From the IMG/VR virus record IMGVR_UViG_3300006141_000016: 57,386 nt of DNA; one strand, given 5' to 3'. Below, in pieces: positions 7,582 to 47,152 of the stretch. A program made the position numbers and the translations under genes. Numbering within the stretch: position 1 is the first letter of the stretch; each line of letters begins with the position of its first letter. The notes below the pieces were generated by a model. That model was not told the DNA's origin, made no database searches, and worked only from the letters and a program-made list of their open reading frames with translations. Origin of the DNA: a virus.

Positions 7582-7615
7582 ATGGTACAACAGCCTTTGC
7601 ATTTGGATGTAAAAT
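7582..7615 (+). promoter_or_regulatory. Conserved promoter motif copy (ATGGTACAA-N19-TAAAAT) upstream of the lysis cassette
   Basis: Bipartite motif with exact spacing. Intergenic, 29 nt upstream of the xhlA-like start. Confidence 0.6.
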
Positions 7616-7643
7616 TTAAATAAAAATCGAGGTGATAATTATT

Positions 7644-32835: not shown

Positions 32836-33069
32836 ATGATTTCAGCAAATGAAGCAAGGGAAAAGACAGAAGCGGTAAGAAATAACGGCGTTGAGCGTGA
32901 ACTGGAAAGAATCGAACATGAGATTGAGGAAGCTATCAGAAATGGAGATAACAATATAGCTTTAGACGGTACGATAAGTCACCCAACAGCTAACTATATG
33001 CGGCAACTGGGATATGAGGTACACACTGGCAGTCAGTACAACGAATCGTATTTTACAATCAAGTGGTAA
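32836..33069 (+). CDS. Hypothetical (77 aa)
   Basis: ORF with a GGGGCGGTGA RBS-like stretch. Confidence 0.5.
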   Translation: MISANEAREKTEAVRNNGVERELERIEHEIEEAIRNGDNNIALDGTISHPTANYMRQLGYEVHTGSQYNESYFTIKW

Positions 33070-33081
33070 GGTGAGTATAAC

Positions 33082-34560
33082 ATGGGCTTAATTTCGTGGA
33101 TAAAGGAGAAATTCAAAATGCTGTTTAAAACGGACGCTGAAAAGGCTTTTGGTGTGGAAACGTACCTGTCGCCGGAAATGGACGCTGCTATTAAGCTATG
33201 GCAGCAGTTGGAGAGTGGTAAGCCTCCGTGGGTAGATGGGGATACCAAAACAATCCGGTTTTCAAACACTGTGGCCAGGGAGCTGTCTAAGCTAGTCACA
33301 CAGAATATTGACATTAAGGTGCAGGCCAAGTATGGGATTGGGGAAACGGCGGCCAAAATCCAGAAAGCCATTGACAATTATTTCCTGAAGAACGCTCAGG
33401 AGATTATTGGCAATCAAATCATGCTGGGTGGTGTGATGGCGAAGTGGAACGGTAAGGGAATGGACTACATACCGCCGGATCGGTTCCTGGTGACGGAGTT
33501 TGACAGCAACGGGGATATACATGGGGCAATCTTCTTCTCCTACTACCAGAAAGAAAAAAAGTTCTACACAAGGGCAGAATGGCACAGGTTCGAGGATGGC
33601 ACACAGAAGAACGAAGCCGGTGAAATGGTATCGGTCCACATTTACCAGGTGTCCAACAAAGCCTTTGTGTCGGACCAACAGGACCAGATCGGCCGGGAGA
33701 CCACACTTAAAAATACTAAGTGGGCGGATATTGTGCCGGAGTTTACAGCGGAGAACCTTGAAAAGCCTTTATTCGTATACATAAAGAATCCATACAGCAA
33801 CACCATAGACTCTGACAGTCCACTGGGAGTATCCTGCTTTTCAGAGTGCATAGAGGAGCTTCGGTGGCTGGATATTGCAATGAGTACTATGGGTATAGAA
33901 ACAGAGGATTCGGCACCTAAAATGATTGTCGGGCAGTCTGCAATACAGTATGCGAAAAATAATGGGATTAAACTTCCGAGAATGGTGCTTAATACTGGAC
34001 TGGACGATATGACAGACAAACCATTTGAGCAGTGGCAGCCACAGTTGCAGGTGGCGAGCCGGACGGAGGGCATTAATTTCTATCTGAATATTATTTCTGC
34101 AAAAGTAGGGCTGGATACCGGGACTTTCGTGTTTAACGGTCAAAAGGTGGTGGTTGCCACAGCTACCCAGATAGAAGCCACAGAGCGAAAGACCATCAAT
34201 ACCATGATGATGTATCGTCAAGTCCTGGACAGGCCGGAATCGAACGGAGATGGGCGCGTTGGGGTGATACATGATATTGCGTATATCATTAACGCCATGG
34301 AAGCTATTAACGGCGATATAGCCCCATCCGAATTTGGAAACTATAAGCTGTATGCTGACTTCGGCGATCCATTCAGCAATAAAGAAGAGGACAAATTCTT
34401 TGAGCTGCAGCTTGCTAACCAGGGATATATGGCAAAGTGGCGCTTTAACGTCCGCCACCTGGGAGTTACGGAGGAAGAAGCAAAGCAGATGGTGCAGGAG
34501 GCTGTTGAGGAAAGAAACGCGAATCAACCGGAGGAAAGCAGACTGTTTGGGGAGGAATAG
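33082..34560 (+). CDS. Portal protein (SPP1 gp6-like)
   Basis: 492 aa with AAGGTGAG RBS. Position after terL and before the MuF-like head-morphogenesis gene. Confidence 0.8.
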   Translation: MGLISWIKEKFKMLFKTDAEKAFGVETYLSPEMDAAIKLWQQLESGKPPWVDGDTKTIRFSNTVARELSKLVTQNIDIKVQAKYGIGETAAKIQKAIDNYFLKNAQEIIGNQIMLGGVMAKWNGKGMDYIPPDRFLVTEFDSNGDIHGAIFFSYYQKEKKFYTRAEWHRFEDGTQKNEAGEMVSVHIYQVSNKAFVSDQQDQIGRETTLKNTKWADIVPEFTAENLEKPLFVYIKNPYSNTIDSDSPLGVSCFSECIEELRWLDIAMSTMGIETEDSAPKMIVGQSAIQYAKNNGIKLPRMVLNTGLDDMTDKPFEQWQPQLQVASRTEGINFYLNIISAKVGLDTGTFVFNGQKVVVATATQIEATERKTINTMMMYRQVLDRPESNGDGRVGVIHDIAYIINAMEAINGDIAPSEFGNYKLYADFGDPFSNKEEDKFFELQLANQGYMAKWRFNVRHLGVTEEEAKQMVQEAVEERNANQPEESRLFGEE

Positions 34561-34564
34561 GGAA

Positions 34565-34792
34565 ATGACATTACAAGAATTGGCTGACATATTGACAGAA
34601 GCATGGGGCGGCATTTCTGAAAAGATGGAAAAGCTGGCAGAAGCATTACGAAAGGCATTTGATGAAGCCAATAAGAAAATCGAGGAACACAAGAGGCTTT
34701 TGCGAAGACCGCCAAAATGGTACAGCAAAGCGAATGCTCCCGCTATACTTGTGAGTAGAAGCAAGCTGTATCATTGCCGGGATAATTGTTAG
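34565..34792 (+). CDS. Hypothetical (75 aa)
   Basis: ATG 34565, 5 nt after the portal stop. Confidence 0.45.
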   Translation: MTLQELADILTEAWGGISEKMEKLAEALRKAFDEANKKIEEHKRLLRRPPKWYSKANAPAILVSRSKLYHCRDNC

Positions 34793-34805
34793 AAAGCGTG
34801 ATTTT

Positions 34806-35243
34806 ATGAGAATCAACAAAACAAATGGGAATGTTGACATAAAACTGGATACAAAGCGCATTGACCGCAATATGAAAGAAGCGCAGAAGCTGTTGAACCT
34901 GGCTGTCCGGACTGACTGTGAGCCGTTGGTTCCGTTACTGAATGGGCAGCTTCGCCGGAGCGCCAATTTCCCGGAGGGAGTATATGGGGGAGTGCTGGAA
35001 TACAATACGCCATATGCGCATGCGATTTACGAGGGATTCGTATTTACTCCAAACATACCGATTAAGGACAGCGAGGGAAATATTACTGGTTGGTTTTCGC
35101 CGCCAGGACAAAAGAAACAGAAGACCAACAGAAAAATGCATTTCCACGAACCTGGCACAACAGACCACTTTTTTGAAGAAGCGAAGCGTTTACATGGCGT
35201 TGAATGGATACGGCTTGTAAAAGAAACTGCCGGAAAAGATTAA
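34806..35243 (+). CDS. Minor capsid protein candidate
   Basis: 145 aa. NTPYAHAIYEGF motif as in minor-capsid / head-completion families. Position in the head module. Confidence 0.5.
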   Translation: MRINKTNGNVDIKLDTKRIDRNMKEAQKLLNLAVRTDCEPLVPLLNGQLRRSANFPEGVYGGVLEYNTPYAHAIYEGFVFTPNIPIKDSEGNITGWFSPPGQKKQKTNRKMHFHEPGTTDHFFEEAKRLHGVEWIRLVKETAGKD

Positions 35244-35244
35244 C

Positions 35245-35278
35245 TTGGTACAAATCCCTATGCAATCTATTTTATAAT
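35245..35278 (+). promoter_or_regulatory. Conserved promoter motif copy (TTGGTACAA-N19-TATAAT)
   Basis: Starts 2 nt after the upstream stop codon. Exact spacing. Confidence 0.65.
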
Positions 35279-35283
35279 TATAC

Positions 35284-35357
35284 TGTGAGGATAGCTTGAC
35301 GGAGCGAAAGCGGCAATCCCTAGTCGTTTCCTCACAATTCCAAAATAGGGAGATTGC
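35284..35357 (+). ncRNA. Conserved structured 5' leader, copy 1
   Basis: Shares blocks TGTGAGGATAGC, GGCAATCCCTAG, TTTCCTCACA and AAATAGGGA with 41616..41686. Has an 8-bp closing stem plus loop-to-downstream complementarity. Confidence 0.55.
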
Positions 35358-35374
35358 AGAAAGGGAGTGCGATT

Positions 35375-36061
35375 ATGAGCAAAAGAATAGACATGACCGG
35401 TCGGAAATATGGGAGATTAACAATCATAGAGCTTGACCGGATAGAGAATAACCACACATTTTGGAAGTGTCGTTGCGAATGCGGAAATATCGCTATAATT
35501 GACGGGGCAAAACTGCGTAACGGTCATACAAAAAGTTGTGGTTGTTTTAAGTTGGAAAATGTACGTAGACAGAGAAAGCATAATGAGTATGAAATTTTTG
35601 ACAGCTATGTAAAAGTCAAATTAAGCGATACAGAGTATATGCTTTGCGATATTGAAGATTGGGAGAAATTAAAGAAACATCACTGGTATGTTAATGCTGT
35701 TGGGTATGCCGCGGGCGGAACAAGTAAAAATGGAGTATTCCTTTTCCACAAGAAAGTGACAAATACCACAAGCGAAATCATTGACCATATCAACATGAAT
35801 AAATTGGACAACAGAAAATGCAATCTGCGGATAGCGGACAAGAAAATCAATTCCATAAACAGAGGATTGCAATCAAATAATAAAACTGGATATAAGGGCG
35901 TTTACCATGATAGGCGGTATGGCACATGGAATGCAAGAGTTACTGTTGCCGGAAGAACCATTCATTTAGGCACGTTTCCAACAAAGGAAGAAGCGATTGC
36001 GGCGAGACAAGCAGGAGAAGAAAAATATTATCTTCCACAGCTTGAATCCGTGAATAAATAG
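35375..36061 (+). CDS. HNH homing endonuclease with a C-terminal AP2 DNA-binding domain
   Basis: IIDHINMNKLDNRKCNLR (HNH_3-like) and GYKGVYHDRRYGTWNARVTVAGRTIHLGTFPTKEEA (AP2). Confidence 0.8.
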   Translation: MSKRIDMTGRKYGRLTIIELDRIENNHTFWKCRCECGNIAIIDGAKLRNGHTKSCGCFKLENVRRQRKHNEYEIFDSYVKVKLSDTEYMLCDIEDWEKLKKHHWYVNAVGYAAGGTSKNGVFLFHKKVTNTTSEIIDHINMNKLDNRKCNLRIADKKINSINRGLQSNNKTGYKGVYHDRRYGTWNARVTVAGRTIHLGTFPTKEEAIAARQAGEEKYYLPQLESVNK

Positions 36062-36097
36062 TTTGGCAAATGGAAGAGGCCGGGAAAGGATAGGAGT

Positions 36098-36250
36098 ATG
36101 AGCGATGAAGTAAGGATGTTTGCAATCATGTGTGCAAAGAACAGCATAATGCTTATGTGCTTTACATTATTAGCAATTGTGTTTAGTCATTGGTGGATTG
36201 TATTTTTTGCCGCTTTATTCTGGACATGTCCAGCAAAAGAGGGAAAATGA
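36098..36250 (+). CDS. Small TM protein (50 aa)
   Basis: GGAAAGGA RBS, hydrophobic core. Ends 1 nt before the MuF start. Confidence 0.35.
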   Translation: MSDEVRMFAIMCAKNSIMLMCFTLLAIVFSHWWIVFFAALFWTCPAKEGK

Positions 36251-36251
36251 T

Positions 36252-38207
36252 ATGCTTAGGCCGGAATACTTTGATGGAAAAGAACAGCGCATGATGGAGC
36301 TGTATCAGCAGTTATCCGAGTTTATCCTGAAGGAAATTGCCCGGTTCCTGATTGCTGCCGGGAAGATAACTCCAACAGCTGACCGGCTGCTTCAGCGGCT
36401 CCGGCTGATGGGAGAGACGCAGGCGGAGATTGAGAAGAAGCTGCAAGTCCTGACAAAGCTTTCCAGGAAAGAGCTCCGTGCAATCCTTCAGGATGCTGTC
36501 CTGACATCGTGGGAGATCGATGCGGCTCCTTTTCGGGAGATAGGCATAAATCTATCAGACCCACTCAAAAACCCCGCTGTAATCCGAATTATGGACGCAC
36601 AGTACAAGCGGAGCCAGGGGGAACTGCAGAACCTGACCAGGACTACCATGGACCAGAGCAATGTTGACCTGATGAATATGCTGAGCGAGGCGGACATGCG
36701 GGTGGCTGCCGGAGTACAGAGTTATTCCGCTGCCATAAGCGATATTCTTGACCGGTATGCCCACCGCGGGATATATGTGGACTATCCGAAGACGAACACC
36801 CGCAGGACACTGGAAGCGGCGGTGATGTGCTGTATCCGGACAAGCATGGCGCAGATGGCTGGCCAGGTGACCATGGAATTTATCAAAGAGGCTGGGACGA
36901 ACCTTATCATCACATCGGCGCACACAGGGGCCAGATTCACGGACAAAGACGAACCGGCTAATCACATGTCCTGGCAGGGGAGAGTATTCTACATAACGGA
37001 TGCGGACCTGGCAGAGTTCACGGAGGTAAGGTATAAGATTGAAAGCAGCGGCGAAAGGGCCGGCGGCTCTCCGAACACCAGGAAATATCCTGATTTTCGG
37101 GAAACAACCGGCTATGGTACAGGAGAGGGCCTGGACGGATATAATTGCCGCCATTCCTTCGGGCCTTATGATGAACGCATAGGCAACCCATGGCGGGACA
37201 AGGACGGGAATCTGATAGATGGCGCCGGAAACCTGATAGACAGCGAAGAATCAAAGCAGAAGTATAAGGACTCCCAGCGGCTCCGGGCGATCGAACGCAA
37301 TATCCGGGCAATAAAGCGGCAGCTGGCGGCAAAAGAGCAGTTGATGCAGGGGTCATCCAGGGAAGAACTGGAACGCCTGCAGCCGGAGTATGACAAACTG
37401 GCCTATGAACTTACTAGGGAAAATAAAAAGTATAATGACTTTGCCAAAGAGCATAACCTTACGCCGCAATATGGGCGGACGAAACTGGCTGATTTTGGCA
37501 GGGAGCAGGCAAAGCGGAGTAATGCCGGGGCGAAAAGATATGCAAATAGCCATATGGAATTGCAGGGGGATAATAAAACAGCCGATATTGAAGAAAACAA
37601 TGTCTCAAAACCGGTTGCCCAGGAAGGAAAAGGCAGTTATAATAATATCAGGAGCAGGGAAGAGCTGCAAAGGGCAGCGGAGGATATAAAGTCCCAGATT
37701 GGAAACTTTGCAGTGAATCCATCAAAGTGGAGCGGGAAAATTATTATTGATAATTCACTTGCAGATAAGGGCATACTGGGTGAAAAAAGATGGAGCTGTG
37801 ATATTGTATTAAGTGATACGGTAGATGATGGAACTATATGGCATGAAATGCTCCATTCGTGTTCTATAAGTCATTTTGACTCAAATACATATGTACAAAA
37901 TCAATATATTGAAGAAGCTTCTGTTGAATTTTTAAAACGACAAATTTGTTTAGAGAAAAAAATAGCTTCGGTGGCAGTTTATCAGGATAAAGTAACCACA
38001 TTGCAAATTTTGAATAATAAATTTAAGTATGGAACTGACATGGAATTTGCAAAAGAATTATTTAGTATTCCTCTTCCATTGCGATATCAGTGGCTTGAAG
38101 ATAAGATTGATGAAAGCCTTCATACAATGAGAGTATCTTTTGAGGATTATAATGAGACGATGCGGTTTATTGAAGAATTAAAAGGAGGAGGGGATGGGAG
38201 AAATTAA
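36252..38207 (+). CDS. MuF / SPP1 gp7-like head-morphogenesis protein fused to a C-terminal HExxH domain (MuF polymorphic-toxin architecture)
   Basis: GYNCRHSFGPY MuF motif, a long coiled linker, then WHEMLHSCS in a visibly AT-rich 3' part. Confidence 0.75.
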   Translation: MLRPEYFDGKEQRMMELYQQLSEFILKEIARFLIAAGKITPTADRLLQRLRLMGETQAEIEKKLQVLTKLSRKELRAILQDAVLTSWEIDAAPFREIGINLSDPLKNPAVIRIMDAQYKRSQGELQNLTRTTMDQSNVDLMNMLSEADMRVAAGVQSYSAAISDILDRYAHRGIYVDYPKTNTRRTLEAAVMCCIRTSMAQMAGQVTMEFIKEAGTNLIITSAHTGARFTDKDEPANHMSWQGRVFYITDADLAEFTEVRYKIESSGERAGGSPNTRKYPDFRETTGYGTGEGLDGYNCRHSFGPYDERIGNPWRDKDGNLIDGAGNLIDSEESKQKYKDSQRLRAIERNIRAIKRQLAAKEQLMQGSSREELERLQPEYDKLAYELTRENKKYNDFAKEHNLTPQYGRTKLADFGREQAKRSNAGAKRYANSHMELQGDNKTADIEENNVSKPVAQEGKGSYNNIRSREELQRAAEDIKSQIGNFAVNPSKWSGKIIIDNSLADKGILGEKRWSCDIVLSDTVDDGTIWHEMLHSCSISHFDSNTYVQNQYIEEASVEFLKRQICLEKKIASVAVYQDKVTTLQILNNKFKYGTDMEFAKELFSIPLPLRYQWLEDKIDESLHTMRVSFEDYNETMRFIEELKGGGDGRN

Positions 38208-38484
38208 TAATGTAAGCGAAATTAATGAAAACACTGATATTCATGAGTTTGCTATGTTCTGTAAAAAGTTGCGAAAAAAATGGGAGAACCCAGAGACAGA
38301 AGCGGAAAAACTGATATATAGGATGACGCATGGTAAAATGACGAATAAGGAGTATCTGGAATTAGAAGAAGAAGTAATTAAGTTCATTGCGTCTGATGCT
38401 TCGGAAGAAGATAAGAGAGCAGTTGGAGGGTATGCAGAATCTTTAAGTATGATTTGCAATGGCATAAGAGAGGGATTGCTTTAA
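38194..38484 (+). CDS. Candidate cognate immunity protein
   Basis: AAAGGAGGAGGGG RBS. Overlaps the MuF-toxin 3' end. 96 aa, acidic, AT-rich. Confidence 0.5.
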   Translation: MGEINNVSEINENTDIHEFAMFCKKLRKKWENPETEAEKLIYRMTHGKMTNKEYLELEEEVIKFIASDASEEDKRAVGGYAESLSMICNGIREGLL

Positions 38485-38591
38485 CAGGGGAAAGAATGTG
38501 TTTATAAGAGATATGGAAATTCTGTATCGGTGAAATGCGAAACAGAAGGATGTATATCTGAATCAATAAGAGGTTTATAAAATCCGCAATC

Positions 38592-38621
38592 AGCCGCCAG
38601 CTAAATACTGGCGGCTTTTTT
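38592..38621 (+). terminator. Intrinsic terminator
   Basis: AGCCGCCAG-ctaaata-CTGGCGGCT followed by TTTTTT. Confidence 0.85.
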
Positions 38622-38628
38622 GATTAAG

Positions 38629-38662
38629 TTGGTACAACCTCCGTCCAAATCTGTTGTAAAAT
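38629..38662 (+). promoter_or_regulatory. Conserved promoter motif copy (TTGGTACAA-N19-TAAAAT)
   Basis: Immediately after the terminator. Exact spacing. Confidence 0.65.
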
Positions 38663-38679
38663 TGAGTGAGGAGGTAGTG

Positions 38680-38901
38680 ATGATGAATGAAAAATATTCG
38701 GTTGGTGATAAAGTAGTCACTGCGGATAATTGGGATAATGGTTTTGGTAAAATTATTCCTAAAGGAAGTGTTGTTAAAATTACAAGAGCCTTTAAATTTG
38801 ACGGGATAAATATGTATGATTGTGAATACAATGGAGGCAGCGCTATATACGATGAAGAATGGCTCGGAGAAATATATGATCAACCAAAAATCGGCGGTTA
38901 G
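38680..38901 (+). CDS. 73-aa protein; N-terminal part of an interrupted DUF551-type gene
   Basis: GAGGAGG RBS. Ends at TAG 38899, exactly where paralogs have the Trp of G-W-IPC. Confidence 0.55.
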   Translation: MMNEKYSVGDKVVTADNWDNGFGKIIPKGSVVKITRAFKFDGINMYDCEYNGGSAIYDEEWLGEIYDQPKIGG

Positions 38902-39114
38902 ATTCCATGCAGTGAGCGGTTGCCGGAGGACGACGTTGATGTTCTCGTATGGTATGAGTATTTCAGATATGAAGAATACAATAGATTGTTTCAGACAATA
39001 GGAATTTTATTCACATATAACGGCAAATGGTCTGGATTTGTTAATGATCAAAGTGGTTCGAGTCAATTAATGATTATTGCATGGTAACCATTACCAGGGG
39101 CGTATCATGGATAA
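38902..39114 (+). pseudogene. DUF551 domain remnant (paralog 3) cut off by in-frame TAG and TAA
   Basis: In frame with 38680..38901: IPCSERLPEDD...IIAW-TAA-PLPGAYHG. The TAA (39085-39087) replaces the Gln of AWQPLP. Confidence 0.7.
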
Positions 39115-39138
39115 GTGATTGAAAAACCTATCTCAAGT

Positions 39139-39147
39139 TGGTATAAT
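39139..39147 (+). promoter_or_regulatory. Extended -10 promoter element TGGTATAAT
   Basis: TGnTATAAT, 31 nt upstream of ATG 39178. Confidence 0.45.
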
Positions 39148-39177
39148 ATGGGAAAATACATACCGGAGGGGAAAACC

Positions 39178-39501
39178 ATGGGAAACGAAGAAAAGAAAGA
39201 TGAAGTATTGAACATTGCAAACGAATTGCTTCAAGAAATGAAGATTCAGGCGGAAAGATCGCATAAAGCGCTGATAACTGTTGCATGGCTTTGGTTTGCG
39301 TCTGTAATAGCTATTGTGGCCGGATTCCTGATTTACCTGTACCAGTATGATTTTACGGCAACAGTGGAGCAGACCGGGGTATACACTCTTATGGACAGTC
39401 AGGGAAATGTCATATCGTCAGATCTGACGCCTGAGGACATAATCAAGATAGAGGAGATTTTGGAAAGTGGCAAAGACCAAGGTGACCAAGAGCAGAAGTA
39501 A
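39178..39501 (+). CDS. Single-pass membrane protein (107 aa)
   Basis: GGAGGGG RBS. TM segment LITVAWLWFASVIAIVAGFLIYLY. Confidence 0.6.
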   Translation: MGNEEKKDEVLNIANELLQEMKIQAERSHKALITVAWLWFASVIAIVAGFLIYLYQYDFTATVEQTGVYTLMDSQGNVISSDLTPEDIIKIEEILESGKDQGDQEQK

Positions 39502-39547
39502 GAAGAGCGGCAAGAAGAGAGGAACGGCGAAAAGGAAGAAGTAAGGA

Positions 39548-39757
39548 ATGGCACGAAACATTATCCCGGATTTCAGCAGAGAGAAAAGAGAATATTTCAG
39601 GAGAGAATGCAATTTCACTCCAAGAGAAGAACAACTTTTTGATTTGAGGAACCAGGAATATTCTTTGGAGGAATGCGCCGAACTTATGCACTGCAGTGAA
39701 TCCACCATAGGACGAATCAGTAAAAAGATGCTTCGGAAGATAATGGAGCAAATTTGA
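39548..39757 (+). CDS. Small sigma-70 region-4-like / LuxR-type HTH regulator
   Basis: FTPREEQLFDLRNQEYSLEECAELMHCSESTIGRISKKMLRKI. Confidence 0.6.
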   Translation: MARNIIPDFSREKREYFRRECNFTPREEQLFDLRNQEYSLEECAELMHCSESTIGRISKKMLRKIMEQI

Positions 39758-39787
39758 CGGTTTTATGAGAGACTTTTGAAAAGATTT

Positions 39788-39820
39788 AGAGGCTTATCTG
39801 ACATGGTAAGTCTCTTTTTT
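39788..39820 (+). terminator. Intrinsic terminator
   Basis: AGAGGCTTA...TAAGTCTCT 9-bp stem followed by TTTTTT. Confidence 0.75.
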
Positions 39821-39853
39821 GTATGCGAAAATATAGGCGTAGGAGGCATACAA

Positions 39854-40021
39854 ATGCTTTTTAATCTTTGGAACTATACCCCGTCTTACCAAAGCGCGAG
39901 TGACGGGATGATGATAGAGGATGCAATTAAGTCAATGGAGGAGAAAGATGTATCCGAACAATTCCATGCTGAATCAGCAGATGGCGCAGCTCGATCAGGA
40001 GTATGCGCAGAGAAAAGCTAA
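39854..40021 (+). CDS. Possible 55-aa ORF overlapping the next gene
   Basis: Strong AGGAGG RBS 7 nt upstream, but it overlaps 39948..40439 by 74 nt out of frame. Confidence 0.25.
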   Translation: MLFNLWNYTPSYQSASDGMMIEDAIKSMEEKDVSEQFHAESADGAARSGVCAEKS

Positions 40022-40439
40022 TATCATGCAGAGTTTCTACGACCAACAGCAGGGAGGTAGCTGGGGACGGCAGAGCGCACAGGGAACACAGCAATCGCAG
40101 ACATCTAGCCAAAATGTAAACTGGATATATGTTTCCGGCGTTGATGGGGCAAAGAATCAGATTGTGCAGCCGGGACAAACTGCCTGGATGATGGATAATA
40201 ATGAGCCTTATTTTTATGTAAAATCCGTGGATAATGTGGGAAGCTCCACTTTCCGTATATTTCAGTTTGCGGAGGTGCAGGAAATTCAGCCAGAACAGGC
40301 AGTACAACCACAAATAGACCTGTCTCAGTACGTCCAGCGTGACGAATTTGACGCTTTAAAGGCGCAGCTTGAACAACTTACCAATACACAGAAAAAACAG
40401 CCTACAAAGGCAAATAAGGGGGTAGAGGACAATGGCTAA
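39948..40439 (+). CDS. Q/N-rich protein of unknown function
   Basis: GGAGGAGAAAG RBS. Q-rich N-terminus, then a conserved-looking core NWIYVSGVDGAKNQIVQPGQTAWMMDNNEPYFYVKSVDNVG. Confidence 0.65.
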   Translation: MYPNNSMLNQQMAQLDQEYAQRKANIMQSFYDQQQGGSWGRQSAQGTQQSQTSSQNVNWIYVSGVDGAKNQIVQPGQTAWMMDNNEPYFYVKSVDNVGSSTFRIFQFAEVQEIQPEQAVQPQIDLSQYVQRDEFDALKAQLEQLTNTQKKQPTKANKGVEDNG

Positions 40440-40725
40440 TCCTTTAATGGGAATGATGGGCGGATCCCAAGGGGGCAATCCGGCAATGGCGCATATGGGG
40501 AATATGGAAATGATTAAACAGGCAGCGCAGTCTGCCAAAAAGATGATGGGTATGCTGAATGGGGTTAAGAACCCGCAGCAGGCTCTCATGATGGCGGCAC
40601 AACAGAACCCTGGACTTAATTCTGTAATGCAGATGGTGGGCGGACGGGATCCTCGACAAGTTTTTTATGAGGAATGTAAGAAAAACGGAGTAAATCCAGA
40701 GGATATTTTAAAAGAATTACGCTAA
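40432..40725 (+). CDS. Met/Gln-rich small protein of unknown function
   Basis: 97 aa. MGMMGGSQGGNPAMAHMGNMEM...NPQQALMMAAQQNPGLNSVMQMVGG. Confidence 0.6.
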   Translation: MANPLMGMMGGSQGGNPAMAHMGNMEMIKQAAQSAKKMMGMLNGVKNPQQALMMAAQQNPGLNSVMQMVGGRDPRQVFYEECKKNGVNPEDILKELR

Positions 40726-40816
40726 CACCACCAAAGACGGTGTTAAGAATAAACTGACGCACAAATCGAAAGTGCGCCACTAACCCCTAAAAGCTATGGG
40801 GTAGAAAGGAGAAGCT

Positions 40817-41467
40817 ATGGATAGCTCTAATGATTTTGCAGTAGGTTATGCAGTCGGTGACAATGCCGCAAACCGTAACTGCGGTTATGGCAATGGCATG
40901 TTTGGCGCAGACGGAGGATTCTTCTGGATCTTCGCATTGCTGTTACTGCCCATGATGACCAACGGCGGTCTGTGGGGGACCAACGGCAGGGGACAGGCTG
41001 TGACAGAAGCAGGGCTGTGCAATGCCATGAATTTCAACAACCTGGAGAACGCTGTGGGTCGTTTGAGCGACCAGCAGGCGGCAATCGCACGCCAGACAGA
41101 CAATGCGATTTGCAATCTGGGTTATGAAACCCTGCGGAACTTTAACAGCCTGGAACAGCAGTTGGCGGCTTGTTGCTGCGGTATCGAAAAGGCAATCCTT
41201 GAGAACCGCTATCTGGCAGCACAGAACACCAGCGAGATTATCCAGGCACAGGAGAGAGGGACACAGAAAGTTCTTGACTGGCTGTGCAACCAGGAAAACC
41301 GCAATTTGCGTGACGAGAATATGAGGAATTATATTCAGTCTCAGTTCTGTGGCGTTCCGAGATTCCAGCCTGGTACGGTATACGGTGCAGTTCCGGCAAA
41401 TCCGTTTTTCGGAAACTGGAATAACTGCGGCGGATGCGGTGGCTGTTGCGGAAACGGCAACATCTAA
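40817..41467 (+). CDS. Cys-rich protein with a YjcZ-like G/Y/F hydrophobic N-terminus and CGGCGGCCGNGNI tail
   Basis: AAAGGAGAAG RBS. NCGYGNGMFGADGGFFWIFALLLLPMM is reminiscent of tiny YjcZ-type sporulation proteins. Contains a CCC motif and terminal Cys clusters. Confidence 0.6.
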   Translation: MDSSNDFAVGYAVGDNAANRNCGYGNGMFGADGGFFWIFALLLLPMMTNGGLWGTNGRGQAVTEAGLCNAMNFNNLENAVGRLSDQQAAIARQTDNAICNLGYETLRNFNSLEQQLAACCCGIEKAILENRYLAAQNTSEIIQAQERGTQKVLDWLCNQENRNLRDENMRNYIQSQFCGVPRFQPGTVYGAVPANPFFGNWNNCGGCGGCCGNGNI

Positions 41468-41496
41468 TCATTGGTCACACTGACCGGGGAGAAAGG

Positions 41497-41530
41497 CGGG
41501 GTGGCTGAAAAATCGGTTGCCCCGTTTTTA
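41497..41530 (+). terminator. Intrinsic terminator
   Basis: CGGGGTGGC...GTTGCCCCG stem (with G-U pairs) followed by TTTTTATT. Confidence 0.7.
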
Positions 41531-41576
41531 TTGTACATTGAAAACCGAATACTGGCAGTAGTTTGTGGGCTTTAGA

Positions 41577-41610
41577 ATGGTACAACTGATTTATTCCCTC
41601 ATGGTAAAAT
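41577..41610 (+). promoter_or_regulatory. Conserved promoter motif copy (ATGGTACAA-N19-TAAAAT)
   Basis: Exact spacing. Followed 6 nt later by leader copy 2. Confidence 0.65.
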
Positions 41611-41615
41611 ATCAT

Positions 41616-41686
41616 TGTGAGGATAGCCAACCGGTGGCGACAAGTGGCAATCCCTAGCCATTTCCTCACATTGTAAATAGGGAATT
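41616..41686 (+). ncRNA. Conserved structured 5' leader, copy 2
   Basis: Same four conserved blocks and the same geometry relative to the -10 as 35284..35357. The variable inner hairpin is GCCA...TGGC. Confidence 0.55.
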
Positions 41687-41705
41687 ACAAGGAGGGAATG
41701 TAATT

Positions 41706-42617
41706 ATGGGAATGACAAATAATATGTTGTCGCTTGTGCGGTATGTGGCAGAAAATGACCTATCAAAAGCCAAACAGTATGCGCTTAGCTGTTGTGTGGA
41801 AGATACCACACAGAAAAACAAGTATTATGTATCAAGGTATAAGCAGTTGCTCACTACTGGCGGCTTAAATATGATTGAATTGCCGCCTAACGTGTCAAAA
41901 TTTGCCACAATGGAAGATGTATCTATGACATACATAGAAAATAGGTATTATCTGACGGAGGACGAAAAGAAACTGTTTGAACTGATACGAGATATGAACG
42001 ATGTTGCCTTACAGCTTATGGAAAAACAGATACCATATCTGAATGCTACTTTGTTATACGGAGAAAGCGGAGTTGGAAAGACAGCATTTTCAAAATATGT
42101 CGCATACAAACTTGAAATGCCTTATCTGTATGTGAACTTTTCCAAAATGTTAGACAGCTTACTTGGAGGAACCGCAAAGAATTTGACTGCATTGTTTAAT
42201 TATATCAATCAGCAAAAATGCGTAATAATGCTTGATGAAATTGACTGTATGGCAGGAAATAGAAAGTATTCTGATGGTGGAGCGTCGGCAGAAGTATCAA
42301 GAAGTACAACATGCCTATTACAGCTTTTAGACGCAGTTACAAACGACCATGTAATACTAGCGGCAACAAATCTGATTGATGATGTTGACCCGGCTGTAAA
42401 AAGAAGATTTACAGAAAAACATGAAATGCACCGTCTGACCACTGATGAAAATTATGCTTTCATCTGTCAATACATGAATAGCACTGGTTTTAAATATAGC
42501 CTTCTATCTGCAATGGAATATGCGAGGCAGGAACATTCACAAGCGGAAATTATGACACATATGACAAGGTGCATTGCACAAACGCTTATAAACAAAAAGT
42601 CCATAGTTGAATTTTAA
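41706..42617 (+). CDS. Classical AAA+ ATPase (FtsH/Cdc48-clade AAA domain)
   Basis: Walker A GESGVGKT, Walker B IMLDEID, sensor LAATN, RRF. Confidence 0.85.
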   Translation: MGMTNNMLSLVRYVAENDLSKAKQYALSCCVEDTTQKNKYYVSRYKQLLTTGGLNMIELPPNVSKFATMEDVSMTYIENRYYLTEDEKKLFELIRDMNDVALQLMEKQIPYLNATLLYGESGVGKTAFSKYVAYKLEMPYLYVNFSKMLDSLLGGTAKNLTALFNYINQQKCVIMLDEIDCMAGNRKYSDGGASAEVSRSTTCLLQLLDAVTNDHVILAATNLIDDVDPAVKRRFTEKHEMHRLTTDENYAFICQYMNSTGFKYSLLSAMEYARQEHSQAEIMTHMTRCIAQTLINKKSIVEF

Positions 42618-42685
42618 TAAAACCCAGAAACTACTGTCAGTAAATCGGCAGTAGTTTTTATTTTGCAGAAATGGAGGAAAATATT

Positions 42686-43090
42686 ATGAGTTGTAAAGCG
42701 GCAATATACACAGCCAACACAGGCGCACAAGCATTGCAGATTGGGAGCGTTCTTTCTCTTGGCTCCATTATCCGGCGTTTCGGGTGTGGCGTAAATCTGA
42801 ACGGAAACGGCGTTGTGATTGACAGAGAAGGGTATTATGACGTGGACGCGTCTATCACAGCCACGGCAGCGGCAGCTGGCACTGTAACGGTAACATTGCT
42901 CCGTGATGGTGTAGCAGTTCCGGGGGCGGTAGCGTCTGCAACGGCGGCAGCAGCAGGAACGGTTGCACTCCCTATCACTGCACTTGTCCGGCAGTCTTGC
43001 GGTTGCTCTGGCGGCTCTACTCTTACACTCGTTCTGGGTGGCACAGCGGCGACTATCAATAATGTGGCGCTGAAAGTCATTAAGTTGTAA
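42686..43090 (+). CDS. TNF/C1q-like jelly-roll protein (BclA C-terminal / BxpB-like pattern)
   Basis: GGAGGAAAA RBS. REGYYDVDASITATA..GTVTVTLLRDGVAVPGA......LTLVLGG...INNVALKVIKL resembles exosporium BclA-CTD/ExsFA proteins. Confidence 0.5.
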   Translation: MSCKAAIYTANTGAQALQIGSVLSLGSIIRRFGCGVNLNGNGVVIDREGYYDVDASITATAAAAGTVTVTLLRDGVAVPGAVASATAAAAGTVALPITALVRQSCGCSGGSTLTLVLGGTAATINNVALKVIKL

Positions 43091-43329
43091 TGGACGGCAG
43101 GCAATTTGACGCTCTGGACGCTTTGGGCGTGGCTTCGTTCCTTTTGGGGTTGGAAAATCTTTATGAGAATAGGAGCCAGTCCGCTCAGAATGACGTAGGA
43201 GCCGCAAACGACAAGCAAGCGTCTTATCTTCTGTCCGAGATAGGAAAACGCCTTGACGGGCAGGATAGGACGCTTGAAGCGATATTGAATAAGTTGGAGC
43301 AACTGGAAAGGAGATTGGACAATGCATAA
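43090..43329 (+). CDS. Small coiled-coil protein
   Basis: TAATG-coupled. 79 aa. Confidence 0.55.
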   Translation: MDGRQFDALDALGVASFLLGLENLYENRSQSAQNDVGAANDKQASYLLSEIGKRLDGQDRTLEAILNKLEQLERRLDNA

Positions 43330-43762
43330 GCTGATGGAACGGATTGAAAAAGAACTCCATGAGATTGCGGAAAAGGGATTTTCTCCCACGAATATAGACA
43401 ATGCCATGAAGTTCGTGGACATGTACAAAGACCTAAAATATGTAGAGTACATGGGATTCACAGAGGGCGCTTATCATGAAGTGAAAGAAGAGATGATGCC
43501 GGGCAAGACAAGGACCATGGAGCGCCGAGAAGGCTCCCGGTTTGACCGGAACATCAATGAACTGTATGATAAATATCTCTGGTGCAAGAAAGAGTATGCC
43601 AGGGACGGTTCTGAGGTTCACCGACAGAAAGTGACGGAGGCCCTTGAACGGCTGATGTCGGAAATCTGCGATTTGCTGTTTGACATCAACCGTGATGCTG
43701 ACTTTAAGGCAGAGAGGGACGTTGTGCTGAAATATAAAAAGAGCATGGAGCAGATTTCATAA
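43322..43762 (+). CDS. Helical protein of unknown function (146 aa)
   Basis: Overlap-coupled ORF. Last gene before the terminator. Confidence 0.6.
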   Translation: MHKLMERIEKELHEIAEKGFSPTNIDNAMKFVDMYKDLKYVEYMGFTEGAYHEVKEEMMPGKTRTMERREGSRFDRNINELYDKYLWCKKEYARDGSEVHRQKVTEALERLMSEICDLLFDINRDADFKAERDVVLKYKKSMEQIS

Positions 43763-43769
43763 GAAAAAG

Positions 43770-43793
43770 GGCGGTAGGTGTTATCCTGCCGCC
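43770..43793. terminator. Bidirectional terminator hairpin
   Basis: GGCGGTAGG...CCTGCCGCC, with TTTTTCTT on the minus side and TGTTCTTT on the plus side. Sequence-related to 9225..9247. Confidence 0.7.
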
Positions 43794-43996
43794 TGTTCTT
43801 TACACAAGAAAAATCTAAATCGTTCAATGTCGTATTCTACGGTAACACAGTTGTTGTCAGCAGTATACAGAGCGTATTCTGTGCCGTATGACGCCTTACG
43901 GGAGCGTATTTCAGAACCGTCCGAAAGCCTATACAAACCTTTGAATCTATGGCTATAAATAAAAGATTTCATTCTGTCAAAATCCGAGTTCGTCAT
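43781..43996 (-). CDS. Small protein (71 aa), minus-strand operon
   Basis: GAGGAGGAT RBS before ATG 43996. Confidence 0.55.
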   Translation of the reverse strand: MTNSDFDRMKSFIYSHRFKGLYRLSDGSEIRSRKASYGTEYALYTADNNCVTVEYDIERFRFFLCKEQAAG

Positions 43997-44036
43997 ATCC
44001 TCCTCACTTTCTCCCTGTATTTCTAACAAGGCTACA

Positions 44037-44213
44037 TCAATATTCAGGAATCATACTGGAAAGTTCTTCCATCTGCTCTTTAGTAATCAATTCTGCAGTT
44101 CTGGCGAACATGACCTGACCGTGCCGGAATGCATAATCAACCTTTCCGCATACCCAACTTTCAAGCAGGATTTGATTTTTCAGGTGCTCATACCATTTAT
44201 TCTTTTCATTCAT
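44037..44213 (-). CDS. Small protein (58 aa), minus-strand operon
   Basis: GGGAGGAAG RBS. MNEKNKWYEHLKNQ... Confidence 0.5.
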   Translation of the reverse strand: MNEKNKWYEHLKNQILLESWVCGKVDYAFRHGQVMFARTAELITKEQMEELSSMIPEY

Positions 44214-44261
44214 ATGATTACTCGCTTCCTCCCTGCATTACCCGGCAGGGACGGGGTAAAA

Positions 44262-44486
44262 TCAATCAATAGCTACTTCGATGTAATGTTTCCAGGTTCC
44301 ATCTGATTGCTTGCCAAAAGACCCAAACCTTTTTAAGGTGCGTTCTCCAAAAATACTTTTTATGAGCTCAGATCCACTCATATTATGACTGGAAATGAAT
44401 TGCCCATTGGACGCTGTTTCCCTAACCTCAAAAATATCAGGCGAGTCCCAACCAGACCAAATTTTTAAAACATCTTTTGCCTTCAT
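44262..44486 (-). CDS. Small protein (74 aa), minus-strand operon
   Basis: ORF in the track. AAGAAAGAAGGGATGAT upstream. Confidence 0.55.
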   Translation of the reverse strand: MKAKDVLKIWSGWDSPDIFEVRETASNGQFISSHNMSGSELIKSIFGERTLKRFGSFGKQSDGTWKHYIEVAID

Positions 44487-44518
44487 ATCATCCCTTCTTT
44501 CTTACAGCATAACCTAGG

Positions 44519-44755
44519 TCATTTTTCTATCAATTCAAGATTATAAAGCATATTCTCTAAAGATACATATGCGACCATCATGTCACATTTAATATCTGCA
44601 AAATCTTCATCCGAGATTTCCGAAACGATGTCTTCATGCTTCGATAATTGTTTTTCATACCATTCATCAATTTCGGCTTCCAACTTTGCGGATTTTTCTA
44701 CTAAGGCGTTGTGCCTTTCAATCTTTTTAGAGATATAGTTTGGTATTTTCGGCAT
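44519..44755 (-). CDS. Small acidic protein (78 aa), minus-strand operon
   Basis: GGAGGAAGA RBS. Confidence 0.6.
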   Translation of the reverse strand: MPKIPNYISKKIERHNALVEKSAKLEAEIDEWYEKQLSKHEDIVSEISDEDFADIKCDMMVAYVSLENMLYNLELIEK

Positions 44756-44802
44756 TCTTCCTCCATTTCCCCCGGCGCAACCCCGCCGGGTGGGTGGTGT
44801 GG

Positions 44803-44961
44803 TTATTTTTTAACCATGTGTTTACTTACTTCGTAAATAATAGATAAAATTTCAAAATTTATGCTTTCGAGTTTTTCTTTTGTAAAAATGAAATCATTTG
44901 TTCTGGTTTGGTGTTTTAGTATTTCTTCAATCATATCTTTTTTCGTGAGTTCTTTTGTCAT
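44803..44961 (-). CDS. Small protein (52 aa), first gene of the minus-strand operon
   Basis: GGAGGATATGGAAA RBS before ATG 44961. Confidence 0.5.
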   Translation of the reverse strand: MTKELTKKDMIEEILKHQTRTNDFIFTKEKLESINFEILSIIYEVSKHMVKK

Positions 44962-44993
44962 TTTCCATATCCTCCGTTCCTTTGATAAGACTA

Positions 44994-45022
44994 ATTATAC
45001 ACACTATAATGTGTAATTTCAA
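44994..45022 (-). promoter_or_regulatory. Strong sigma-A-type promoter TTGAAA-17-TATAAT for the small-gene operon
   Basis: Read on the minus strand. Overlapped by an operator-like inverted repeat. Confidence 0.6.
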
Positions 45023-45581: not shown

Positions 45582-45672
45582 GGCAAGATAGCCCTGACTC
45601 CGAACGTGGAGCAATCAGGTATGTTGGGTTCAGCATTTGAACAAAACGCAGGTTCAATTCCTGCTCTTGCCA
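45582..45672 (+). ncRNA. 91-nt tRNA-like element with a non-canonical core
   Basis: Perfect 7-bp acceptor stem GGCAAGA/TCTTGCC and a canonical T-arm GCAGG-TTCAATT-CCTGC. I could not fold standard D or anticodon arms. Confidence 0.4.
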
Positions 45673-46864: not shown

Positions 46865-46934
46865 TTTCTGCATAAACAGTGCAGAACATTTCCCTTTCCA
46901 AGCGCCTGCCCATTGCGGGCGGGCGCACCCTCCT

Positions 46935-47007
46935 CGGATTTTAGCGCAGTTGGCAGAGCACCTGTCTTATATACAGGCGGTCGGTGGTTCGATTCCACCA
47001 ATTCCGA
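46935..47007 (+). tRNA. trnI(UAU): tRNA-Ile, anticodon UAU
   Basis: Manual cloverleaf: 7-bp acceptor stem (one mismatch), D-arm GCGC/GAGC with a GG loop, anticodon stem CCTGT/ACAGG with loop CTTATAT, T-arm GGTGG-TTCGATT-CCACC. Confidence 0.7.
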
Positions 47008-47152
47008 TTACCCCGGCAAAGGTTTATTTGCCTACTCCCTTGCGTGGGCGGCACGCTATAAAAACGCTATGGAGGAAAACTTGGCAAAGTATAAATGCTT
47101 ACTCTCATATGCGGACAGCGCATTATAAAAAATGTTATGGAGGACATGAAGC

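Follow-up and report, generated by a model that had tools for sequence, protein, structure and literature searches.

Two repeated leaders of a temperate siphophage are int-alpA RNAs that extend to the start codons of exchangeable genes

The IMG/VR virus record IMGVR_UViG_3300006141_000016 (57,386 nucleotides (nt); here the window, meaning the whole stretch of DNA that was analysed) is the genome of a temperate siphophage, with TerL, portal, MuF and tape-measure genes, and it raises a simple question: what is the leader that recurs behind two of its promoters, once ahead of a homing endonuclease gene and once ahead of an AAA+ ATPase gene, and what does it do there? The original prediction held that a conserved, pseudoknotted leader RNA starts at each promoter and is transcribed together with the gene behind it; it likened the pair to the put antiterminators of phage HK022 and named a riboswitch or a translational operator as a second thought. 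The existence of such a leader is supported by what follows. Both copies belong to a family that Rfam already holds, the int-alpA RNAs; the conserved unit continues through a hairpin bearing the Shine-Dalgarno (SD) sequence to the start codon; and it is the second thought that the anatomy favours.

Both leaders are structured RNAs and members of the int-alpA family (RF02996). A whole-window scan with Rfam 15 matched copy 1 at 35284-35350 with 45.9 bits against a gathering threshold of 35.8, and copy 2, which that scan missed at gathering thresholds, was recovered by a local Rfam scan at 41616-41682 with 41.4 bits against the same 35.8. Each copy covers positions 1-71 of the 71-position model, so the motif, which had been described as not recognised, is already catalogued. 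Given that int-alpA is in Rfam, the finding is not a new RNA class; the window copies are new members of the family in a new host group and context. An unfiltered search of the window with a covariance model built for this study (R1) returned only the same two sites, at 45.2 and 33.0 bits with the next match at 8.9, and exact 12-mers of the leader occur in the window at those two sites alone. The four identical blocks that had drawn attention to the pair (TGTGAGGATAGC, GGCAATCCCTAG, TTTCCTCACA and AAATAGGGA) all lie where they had been placed, but the sequence between them, thought to be unrelated, is made up of homologous helices whose differences are compensatory. Likewise, the starts of both elements had been set correctly, whereas their ends lie further 3', beyond a hairpin (P4) that abuts the ATG: with this tail, copy 1 occupies 35284-35377 and copy 2 occupies 41616-41708, both on the + strand.

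int-alpA is an orphan motif from comparative genomics with no assigned function. It reportedly goes back to the comparative-genomics survey of Weinberg et al. 2017. The main text of the 2017 survey does not discuss it (PMC5737381), a literature search found no citation of the accession RF02996, and nothing on int-alpA RNA emerged from the literature on alpA RNA motifs or on pseudoknots in connection with homing endonucleases.

The core fold of both copies is a three-way junction of helices P1, P2 and P3. Copy 1, whose minimum-free-energy (MFE) fold contains the same three helices, is laid out as follows.

35284-35336, + strand: core of copy 1 (fold z = -2.5)
35284-35291 / 35329-35336, + strand: P1
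35292-35293, + strand: junction UA between P1 and P2
35294-35297 / 35302-35305, + strand: P2, GCUU/GAGC, with loop GACG
35306-35309, + strand: junction GAAA
35310-35314 / 35323-35327, + strand: P3, GCGGC/GUCGU
35315-35322, + strand: P3 loop AAUCCCUA
35328, + strand: junction U
35346-35351, + strand: site A, UAGGGA, pseudoknot partner of the P3 loop (the conserved AgGG at the 3' end of the Rfam model; loop-tail complementarity is family-wide)
35352-35374, + strand: P4, GAUUGCA/UGCGAUU, with the SD sequence in its loop GAAAGGGAG (in the MFE fold; compensatory variants in copy 2, L003 and L014)
35362-35366, + strand: site B, AGGGA in the P4 loop, complementary to the P3 loop

Copy 2 repeats this plan with other bases in its stems.

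41616-41670, + strand: core of copy 2 (core-alone fold z = -3.3)
41616-41623 / 41663-41670, + strand: P1, its first strand followed by junction UA
41626-41629 / 41635-41638, + strand: P2, GCCA/UGGC, with loop ACCGG
41639-41643, + strand: junction GACAA
41644-41648 / 41657-41661, + strand: P3, GUGGC/GCCAU
41649-41656, + strand: P3 loop AAUCCCUA
41662, + strand: junction U
41678-41686, + strand: site A, UAGGGA then AUU, pseudoknot partner of the P3 loop
41683-41705, + strand: P4, AAUUACA/UGUAAUU, with the SD sequence in its loop AGGAGGGAA (compensatory against copy 1: G-C to A-U, U-G to U-A)
41693-41697, + strand: site B, AGGGA in the P4 loop

Much of the structure first proposed is recovered in these helices. 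Its closing stem of 8 base pairs (bp), UGUGAGGA/UCCUCACA, is real and is the P1 of the family, and the pairing of the loop AAUCCCUA with UAGGGA is equally real, falling in both copies at conserved tail positions of the Rfam model. Its inner hairpin was right for copy 2; that of copy 1 is GCUU/GAGC around a GACG loop and not GCTT/AAGC. What had been overlooked is P3: the pairing loop is the loop of this helix, and the core is therefore a three-way junction. The conserved junction nucleotides of the family (UAGC..., GCGAAAAG and CU) and its GACG loop in P2 recur as well, copy 1 carrying UAGC, the GACG loop and GCGAAAG, and copy 2 carrying UAGC and GCGACAAG with ACCGG in its P2 loop instead, a departure that the Rfam score tolerates. 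The P3 loop has two complements of nearly the same predicted strength, with duplex energies of -8.4 kcal/mol for site A and -7.8 for site B in copy 1, and of -8.9 and -8.4 in copy 2.

Set against the catalogued model, then, the window copies share the junction nucleotides (UA, GAAA(A)), the P2 hairpin, the three-way junction and the pairing of P3 loop and tail. They vary in having a 4-nt GAAA (copy 1) or GACAA (copy 2) junction and a single nucleotide between P3 and P1, and, in copy 2, a 5-nt P2 loop in place of GACG. Three features fall beyond the Rfam model: the hairpin with the SD sequence, the constant spacing to the AUG, and the complementarity of loop and SD sequence. The integrase-to-alpA context from which the family takes its name is descriptive and also outside that model, and the window copies do not share it: they belong to a temperate siphophage and start at a phage promoter, in the head-gene region, with the integrase gene 25 kb away on the opposite strand. 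Two features of the window copies may be recorded besides. P1 is itself SD/anti-SD-like (GUGAGGA/UCCUCAC) in both, which other family members do not share, and in full-length copy 2 (41616-41708) an alternative MFE fold pairs the 3' strand of P1, CAUUUCCUC, with the SD region GAGGGAAUG.

How widely such leaders occur was assessed with a pattern drawn from the sequence common to the window, the Rfam consensus and E. coli (TAGCNNGACGNNGCGAAAN{0,1}GYGG), which yielded 105 viral stretches and at least 120 in GTDB species genomes, or at least about 220 relatives from viral contigs and from bacterial genomes of several phyla. The GTDB taxa among the matches listed include Pseudomonas, Stutzerimonas, enterics, Nitrosomonas, Methylococcaceae, Acidobacteriota, Planctomycetota, Lachnospiraceae, Oscillospiraceae, Christensenella and others. 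Close copies are rare in IMG/VR: a pattern derived from the window (GGATAGC...GCAATCCCTA) gave 23 loci, four of them real (L001, L003, L009 and L014), a second, stricter pattern gave the same four, and the other 19 were discarded as chance matches in which P1 and P3 are absent. Among cultured phages, megablast with window positions 33000-45000 found no match and blastn with the copy 1 leader found chance-level matches only. In E. coli, blastn with the Rfam consensus placed the element in 220 of 5426 complete genomes, chromosomal every time, and two loci examined there read in order tyrosine integrase, element, an unannotated open reading frame (ORF) of ~300 amino acids (aa), an AlpA-type helix-turn-helix (HTH) gene, Icd-like genes and a P4-type primase.

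Matches by blastn were also obtained in two cultured Ralstonia phages, and the copy in phage YL1 was confirmed with R1. There (L311, PQ295876.1) the RNA lies at 2994-3047, after a TATACT and inside the coding sequence YL1_54 (2929-3561); the true start of that gene is likely a GTG near 3079 (VELTQARARELF..., resembling other downstream proteins of the family), so its deposited start is probably too far upstream. A match in the Pseudomonas 'phage' Phipami28, which has ABC-transporter and dehydrogenase genes on one flank, was set aside. Within a locus the element is solitary, R1 finding exactly one copy in each of 100 viral loci. The two-copy layout noticed at the outset holds for the window and for its sister phage, contig L003, and for none of these 100 others, and as a trait of the family it is rejected.

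Comparison of these relatives supports the three helices. R1 was built from 52 diverse cores, and 100 viral homologues, 74 of them distinct, were aligned to it. Standard pairs fill 96% of the cells in the three stems, as against 69% after shuffling and 36-48% with slid partners; double-sided compensatory changes occur at 13 of 16 pairs; and the covariation score of 0.664 (0.168 shuffled, at most 0.14 with slid partners) was reached by none of 500 shuffles, the alignment being one fitted to the model and the shuffles ones that ignore shared descent. Since the collecting pattern fixes parts of P2 and P3, the free tests are limited to P1 and to the inner pairs of P2 and P3. G-U pairs are present on the sense strand. 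A three-way junction with covarying stems is thus found in both copies, and the homologues with compensatory changes that a covariance model and Rfam had been proposed to seek turn out to be plentiful, so that the original prediction survives the test it had set for itself. Nor was the element seen in both orientations or in untranscribed regions at any of the loci collected here.

The tail beyond the Rfam model is equally informative. Of 190 distinct instances parsed, 141 were kept in which P3 was clean and the start codon could be identified; they represent 91 distinct loops. A Watson-Crick match of at least 5 nt between P3 loop and site A is present in 84% of the 141, against a mean of 13% and a maximum of 22% over 500 permutations and against 4% in a control window inside the ORF, which supports the pseudoknot; site A begins 4-16 nt (mostly 6-9) beyond P1. 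P4 stands between this site and the start codon, with a mean stem of 5.1 bp (3.65 bp when shuffled), a freely variable sequence, a loop of 4-10 nt that holds the SD sequence and a 3' end 0-6 nt before the start codon. The start codon itself falls 28-43 nt after the 3' strand of P1 (P1') in ~95% of members, and an ORF of at least 60 codons begins 25-45 nt downstream of P1' at 140 of 173 loci, compared with 25% at random positions.

The P3 loop has a second potential partner. A match of at least 5 nt also falls in the 16 nt directly ahead of the start codon in 59% of members (permuted mean 16%, maximum 26%), and mean duplex energies are -7.6 kcal/mol for loop and site A (null -3.7) and -7.0 kcal/mol for loop and site B (null -5.2). 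The SD region follows the class of the loop: UCCCA goes with GGGA in 20 of 20 cases, CCUUCA with GAAGG in 10 of 14 and CCUUA with AAGG in 17 of 18, and among the smaller classes CAUCC goes with GGAU in 4 of 6 and CAUUC with GAAU in 3 of 4. Close relatives show the three segments changing together. Between copy 1 and L003 the loop passes from AAUCCCUA to AAUUCCUA (CCC to UCC), site A from UAGGGA to UAGGAG (GGG to GGA) and the P4 loop from GAAAGGGAG to GAAAGGAAG (GGG to GGA), and a similar triple compensation separates L086 from L160 in the enteric cluster; L003 and L014 hold further compensatory versions of P4.

The upstream edge of the window leaders is as well defined as the downstream one. 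Each is preceded by the same predicted promoter.

35246-35278, + strand: predicted promoter of copy 1, TGGTACAA, 18-19 nt, TATAAT (-10 at 35273-35278)
41578-41610, + strand: predicted promoter of copy 2, TGGTACAA, 18-19 nt, TAAAAT (-10 at 41605-41610)

Both copies do start 6 nt after the -10 hexamer, as first reported. The pattern TGGTACAA-N(16-20)-WAWAAT occurs four times in the window, with none expected from shuffles, always on the + strand (7583-7615, 35246-35278, 38630-38662 and 41578-41610), and its consensus is TGGTACAA, 18-19 nt, TAWAAT. The same promoter element precedes the homologous leaders of L003 (~7595-7630, - strand) and L014 (~8800-8850). Only two of the four window sites carry the leader; those at 7583 and 38630 are followed at once by an SD sequence and ATG. 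For a sigma-70 -35 element the upstream box is too distant from the -10, so a phage-encoded specificity factor or activator may read TGGTACAA. A candidate reader is the 69-aa product of an ORF at 39548-39757 (+ strand), within the accessory block that the 38630 promoter heads, which comprises little beyond a sigma-70 region-4-like HTH (Pfam Sigma70_r4, 1e-4; phrog_1190 sigma factor, 4e-6). A terminator scan predicted none between leader and gene or within the two short leader operons, both of which end at terminators that are each followed by a fresh promoter, with strong terminators further downstream at 38592 and 43769. By eye, a terminator-like hairpin can also be seen before the second promoter, at ~41497-41529 (+ strand; CGGGG...CCCCG with G-U pairs, then TTTTTATT, a T-run), which the automatic scan does not list, probably owing to its 10-nt loop.

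Across the family, two kinds of upstream neighbourhood can be distinguished. In the first, a TATAAT-like hexamer lies 4-9 nt before P1, at 23 of 74 viral and 14 of 99 genomic loci. In the second, the stop codon of a long ORF lies 7-9 nt (mode 8) before P1, an ORF that is an integrase in two annotated E. coli loci, and many of these integrase-stop members have no recognisable -10 hexamer. At island-type loci, for example L090, L098, L164, L222 and L305, a conserved (C)GAGUUU often stands ahead of P1; with the spacing from the stop codon, it could reflect translational coupling, a processing signal or simply shared descent.

Downstream of the leader the genes differ, and they begin where it ends.

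35375-36061, + strand: copy 1 cargo, the gene of a free-standing homing endonuclease of the HNH-AP2 type (phrog_374, 6e-39; Pfam HNH_3 and AP2, neither reaching its curated cut-off)
41706-42617, + strand: copy 2 cargo, the gene of an AAA+ ATPase that resembles IetA, known from the Iet defence system (Pfam AAA, 3e-25; PADLOC IetA, 1.2e-45)

The first is wedged between a minor-capsid gene (34806-35243) and a MuF-like gene (36177-38207), and the second is followed by small ORFs up to a terminator at 43769-43794. In L003, which is 67-86% identical to the window in aligned segments, both leaders occupy the same two positions. At the first of these, nucleotide homology runs only to 35373 and breaks off 2 nt short of the ATG. 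Other genes lie beyond: in L003 the slot is taken by a 150-aa ORF, methyltransferase-like by eye and with a DPPH motif, and by a 108-aa Cys-rich ORF. The interval from minor capsid to MuF (34806-38207 in the window, 5416-8083 in L003) thereby appears as a cargo hotspot. In L014, a leader of the copy 2 type precedes an unrelated Cys-rich ORF. Conversely, ~60 homologues of the ATPase (70-74% identity) sit in other viral contigs behind different genes and without the leader; of 61 viral loci followed, the sister contig alone has it, and so the leader is not bound to the AAA+ gene, an association that is rejected. No recognisable IetS protease partner for the ATPase was found in 41706-43762 (+ strand), where it is followed by a BclA_C-like ORF of 139 aa (below the Pfam cut-off) and two small ORFs.

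Elsewhere the cargo is no more uniform. About 15 of 54 genes in the viral set, copy 1 included, encode HNH, Endonuclease VII or GIY-like nucleases, the others being methylases, one glycosyltransferase and many without a Pfam match; in the genome set (n = 58) most have no Pfam match, four are DUF6387 and a few are HNH. PADLOC finds known defence families rarely, and the proposal that the cargo consists mainly of known defence genes is rejected. In integrase-linked islands the cargo ORF is often 200-320 aa long without a Pfam or PADLOC match (L085 6082-7035; L086 6082-6963; many Pseudomonas or enteric loci, for instance L110, L141, L267 and L281) and has a recurrent N-terminus, roughly xxY(K/R)LxxWLxxE(Q/E)A, which looks like that of an uncharacterised island protein family. 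Leader, promoter and translation start together form a portable cassette for exchangeable accessory genes.

What might such a cassette do? Because the SD sequence lies inside the conserved unit, which stops at the start codon, the element most likely acts on the initiation of translation, and on balance the leader is probably a portable cis-acting element that gates initiation at whatever gene lies behind it. It would form the 5' part of the messenger RNA, at the head of a cassette of promoter, leader and translation start, and would comprise the three-way junction, the pseudoknot of P3 loop and site A, and P4 with the SD sequence in its loop and the start codon 0-6 nt further on. In the ON state the junction would be folded, the P3 loop held on site A and the SD sequence free, so that translation could proceed; in the OFF state the P3 loop would lie on the SD sequence and initiation would be blocked. 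Loop, site A and SD region co-vary three ways at near-equal energies, which is, on sequence grounds, the signature of two such alternative pairings, between which the leader would alternate. The sequence of the near-invariant junction and P2 is kept from enterics to the phages of Firmicutes, which suggests that the balance may be set there, by a ligand, a protein, a host factor or a tertiary contact.

Several known systems invite comparison with a gate of this kind. Translational riboswitches can be built on a three-way junction or a pseudoknot, as in the add adenine ON switch and in preQ1-II and SAM-II, whose pseudoknots involve the SD sequence. int-alpA resembles them in its conserved junction core, its variable, covarying stems and its aptamer-sized domain directly upstream of the start codon, as well as in an anti-SD-like segment that can pair with either the SD sequence or a competing segment. 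It is unlike them in that the genes it would control have no common metabolic theme, that no Rfam riboswitch matches it and that two classes of tail have no pairing with the SD sequence. In phages, RNA structures at ribosome-binding sites (RBSs) hold back the translation of two homing endonuclease genes, I-TevI and mobE, and are implicated for a third, segB (PMC3014915). As in those cases, copy 1 places RNA structure at the initiation region of a phage homing endonuclease gene; the I-TevI, mobE and segB hairpins, however, are simple and lineage-specific and owe their effect to the promoter of the transcript, which in I-TevI-type hairpins lies inside the structure, whereas int-alpA is a conserved multi-helix domain that spans phyla, also stands before genes other than nucleases and has its promoter, here, outside the structure.

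A number of points weigh against a gate of translation in the form proposed. About one quarter of members fall into two tail classes that keep the pseudoknot and have no complementarity of loop and SD sequence (one with loop ACUCAA and P4 UGCC-GGAG-GGCA, the other with loop CCUAC and P4 GCCU-GAGG-AGGC), and the switch therefore cannot be universal. Loops are anti-SD-like in 133 of 141 members, so that part of the signal at site B could reflect shared SD-like composition, although the class-specific tracking of SD region and loop argues otherwise, and the permutation tests ignore shared descent. Because the collecting pattern prescribes the GAAA junction, P2 and the beginning of P3, it offers no measure of conservation there, and variants such as copy 2 are under-represented in the set. 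No function common to the controlled genes hints at an effector, the searchable literature yielded nothing on the function of int-alpA, one paper merely tabulating the motif, and Rfam files RF02996 under the type 'Gene; sRNA'.

A bolder extension of the gating model is doubtful: the leader would be an orphan riboswitch-like sensor whose junction binds a universal signal of cell state or infection, either a small molecule or a conserved host factor. Phages, satellites and integrative islands, in hosts ranging from Proteobacteria to Firmicutes, would employ it as a plug-in ON switch that times the translation of selfish or cargo genes, among them homing nucleases, methylases, defence-like ATPases and unknown ORFs, and it would double as a recombination anchor for cargo exchange.

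The main rival, itself unlikely, is that nothing switches. The leader would then be a constitutive insulator, a self-folding 5' cap that presents SD sequence and AUG in a constant manner and sets a certain, probably low, level of translation in any transcript. Synthetic biology has such a device in RiboJ, an insulator that pairs a folded 5' domain with a hairpin exposing the SD sequence. Cargo that is unrelated and swapped exactly at the ATG is what this explanation expects, as is an element found both at transcription starts and directly behind an integrase ORF; spread over several phyla would be easier without a specific effector; the two tail classes without loop-SD complementarity fit it; and P4 follows site A by 0-3 nt in the rows inspected, so that P3, the pseudoknot helix and P4 could stack into a rigid whole. 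It leaves unexplained why the SD region tracks the P3 loop in most members, down to the triple compensation in close relatives, and why the two pairings are nearly equal in energy.

It is highly improbable that the element serves to process or define an RNA end, either as a ribozyme that cleaves itself at its own 5' edge or as a tRNA-like substrate of a host RNase, and so frees the cargo message from that of the integrase. The predicted transcription start at the first bases of P1 in the phage, and the position of P1 7-9 nt after the integrase stop in islands, would both suit an RNA end; so would the near-invariance of the junction and P2 sequences, and, in two Rfam consensus lines, the succession of P1, UA and GCUC...GAGC resembles an acceptor stem, U8, A9 and D-arm. 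No ribozyme or tRNA family of Rfam matches either copy, however, ARAGORN makes no call on the element, and the loop-SD complementarity would go unexplained. Two particular motifs were considered by comparison of the bases and rejected: a hammerhead or HDV-like core (by eye the junction of stems I and II is UA, not CUGANGA, and Rfam gives no match) and a guanidine-II-type ACGR loop (the P2 loop reads GACG with a C-G closing pair, where that motif would have ACGR with G-C).

More improbable still is a small RNA (sRNA) that acts in trans, or a 3' end of the integrase message that serves as a terminator or retroregulator in the manner of lambda sib. The Rfam type noted above points that way, together with a U-rich run after the GC-rich P1 in enteric and consensus sequences and the location of the element immediately 3' of integrase genes. 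Yet the window copies have neither a U-run after P1 nor an integrase upstream, the element is always co-oriented with an ORF at a fixed distance, and the conserved unit continues through the SD hairpin to the AUG.

The antiterminator with which the original prediction began retains very little probability, less again than a role in trans. In HK022, put RNAs are cis-acting antiterminators of two adjacent stem-loops each, present in two copies per phage near promoters; a nascent leader of this type would bind its own RNA polymerase and cause it to bypass terminators. The likeness is real as far as it goes: the window element occurs twice, there and in the sister phage, starts at a promoter, is ~70 nt long and would act in cis on its own transcript, a TATAAT lies 4-9 nt upstream at 23 of 74 viral loci, and strong terminators do exist downstream. 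The fold, however, is a three-way junction with a pseudoknot and not two stem-loops, and what is fixed in the family is the distance to the start codon (28-43 nt) and not to a promoter, a -10-like hexamer being confined to the minority of viral and genomic loci counted above; neither this spacing nor an SD hairpin within the conserved unit is needed by an RNA that modifies polymerase. No terminator is predicted between leader and gene or inside the two short operons, the same type of promoter is leaderless at 7583 and 38630, many members follow an integrase stop by 7-9 nt with no recognisable -10, and most have a single copy per locus. It is this lock to the start codon, with the layout of terminators, the leaderless sister promoters and the promoterless integrase-linked members, that disfavours put.

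Least probable of all is a signal in DNA (a recombination or homing site, or an operator) conserved in double- or single-stranded form, for, although cargo is exchanged at the edge of the element, which could make the leader a recombination anchor, and although covariation alone cannot separate single-stranded DNA motifs from RNA motifs (PMC5737381), the sense-strand G-U pairs would be C-A mismatches on the other strand and the element is strictly co-oriented with the downstream ORF at a fixed spacing, with SD sequence and AUG inside the unit.

The remainder of the window is arranged around the two leader operons as follows.

Window start: tape measure protein gene
After the promoter at 7583: XhlA-like gene
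9529-10653, minus strand: integrase
After the integrase: primase/helicase and methyltransferase genes
30409: TerL
33082: portal
34806-35243: minor capsid gene, the nearest ORF upstream of copy 1
36177-38207: MuF-like minor head gene
38592: terminator
From the promoter at 38630: accessory block of ~9 kb, with the second promoter and leader, the IetA-like AAA+ gene, the terminator at 43769 and tRNA-Ile
40817-41467: unannotated ORF, the nearest ORF upstream of copy 2
After the accessory block: scaffold and adaptor genes

The tRNA-Ile (anticodon TAT; 46934-47008, + strand) is called by both Rfam and ARAGORN. A second Rfam tRNA match at 45582-45672 (+ strand, 34.1 bits) has long insertions in two arms and no ARAGORN call, and it may be a degenerate or intron-bearing tRNA-like sequence.

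The interest of these leaders rests on the anatomy that they add to int-alpA and on a testable switch model, not on a new class of RNA. The unit extends through an SD-presenting hairpin to the start codon, its P3 loop co-varies with two alternative partners, and the element travels with a promoter and an RBS as a cassette ahead of interchangeable accessory genes. Its reach includes gut-type genomes of Firmicutes, with Lachnospiraceae, Oscillospiraceae and Christensenella among the matches listed, and cultured Ralstonia phages. If the leader proves to be only an insulator, it would still provide a natural example of a context-independent expression cassette. If instead the switch reading is true, int-alpA would represent a widespread device by which mobile elements control their genes after transcription, and a compact regulatory part that is independent of the host.

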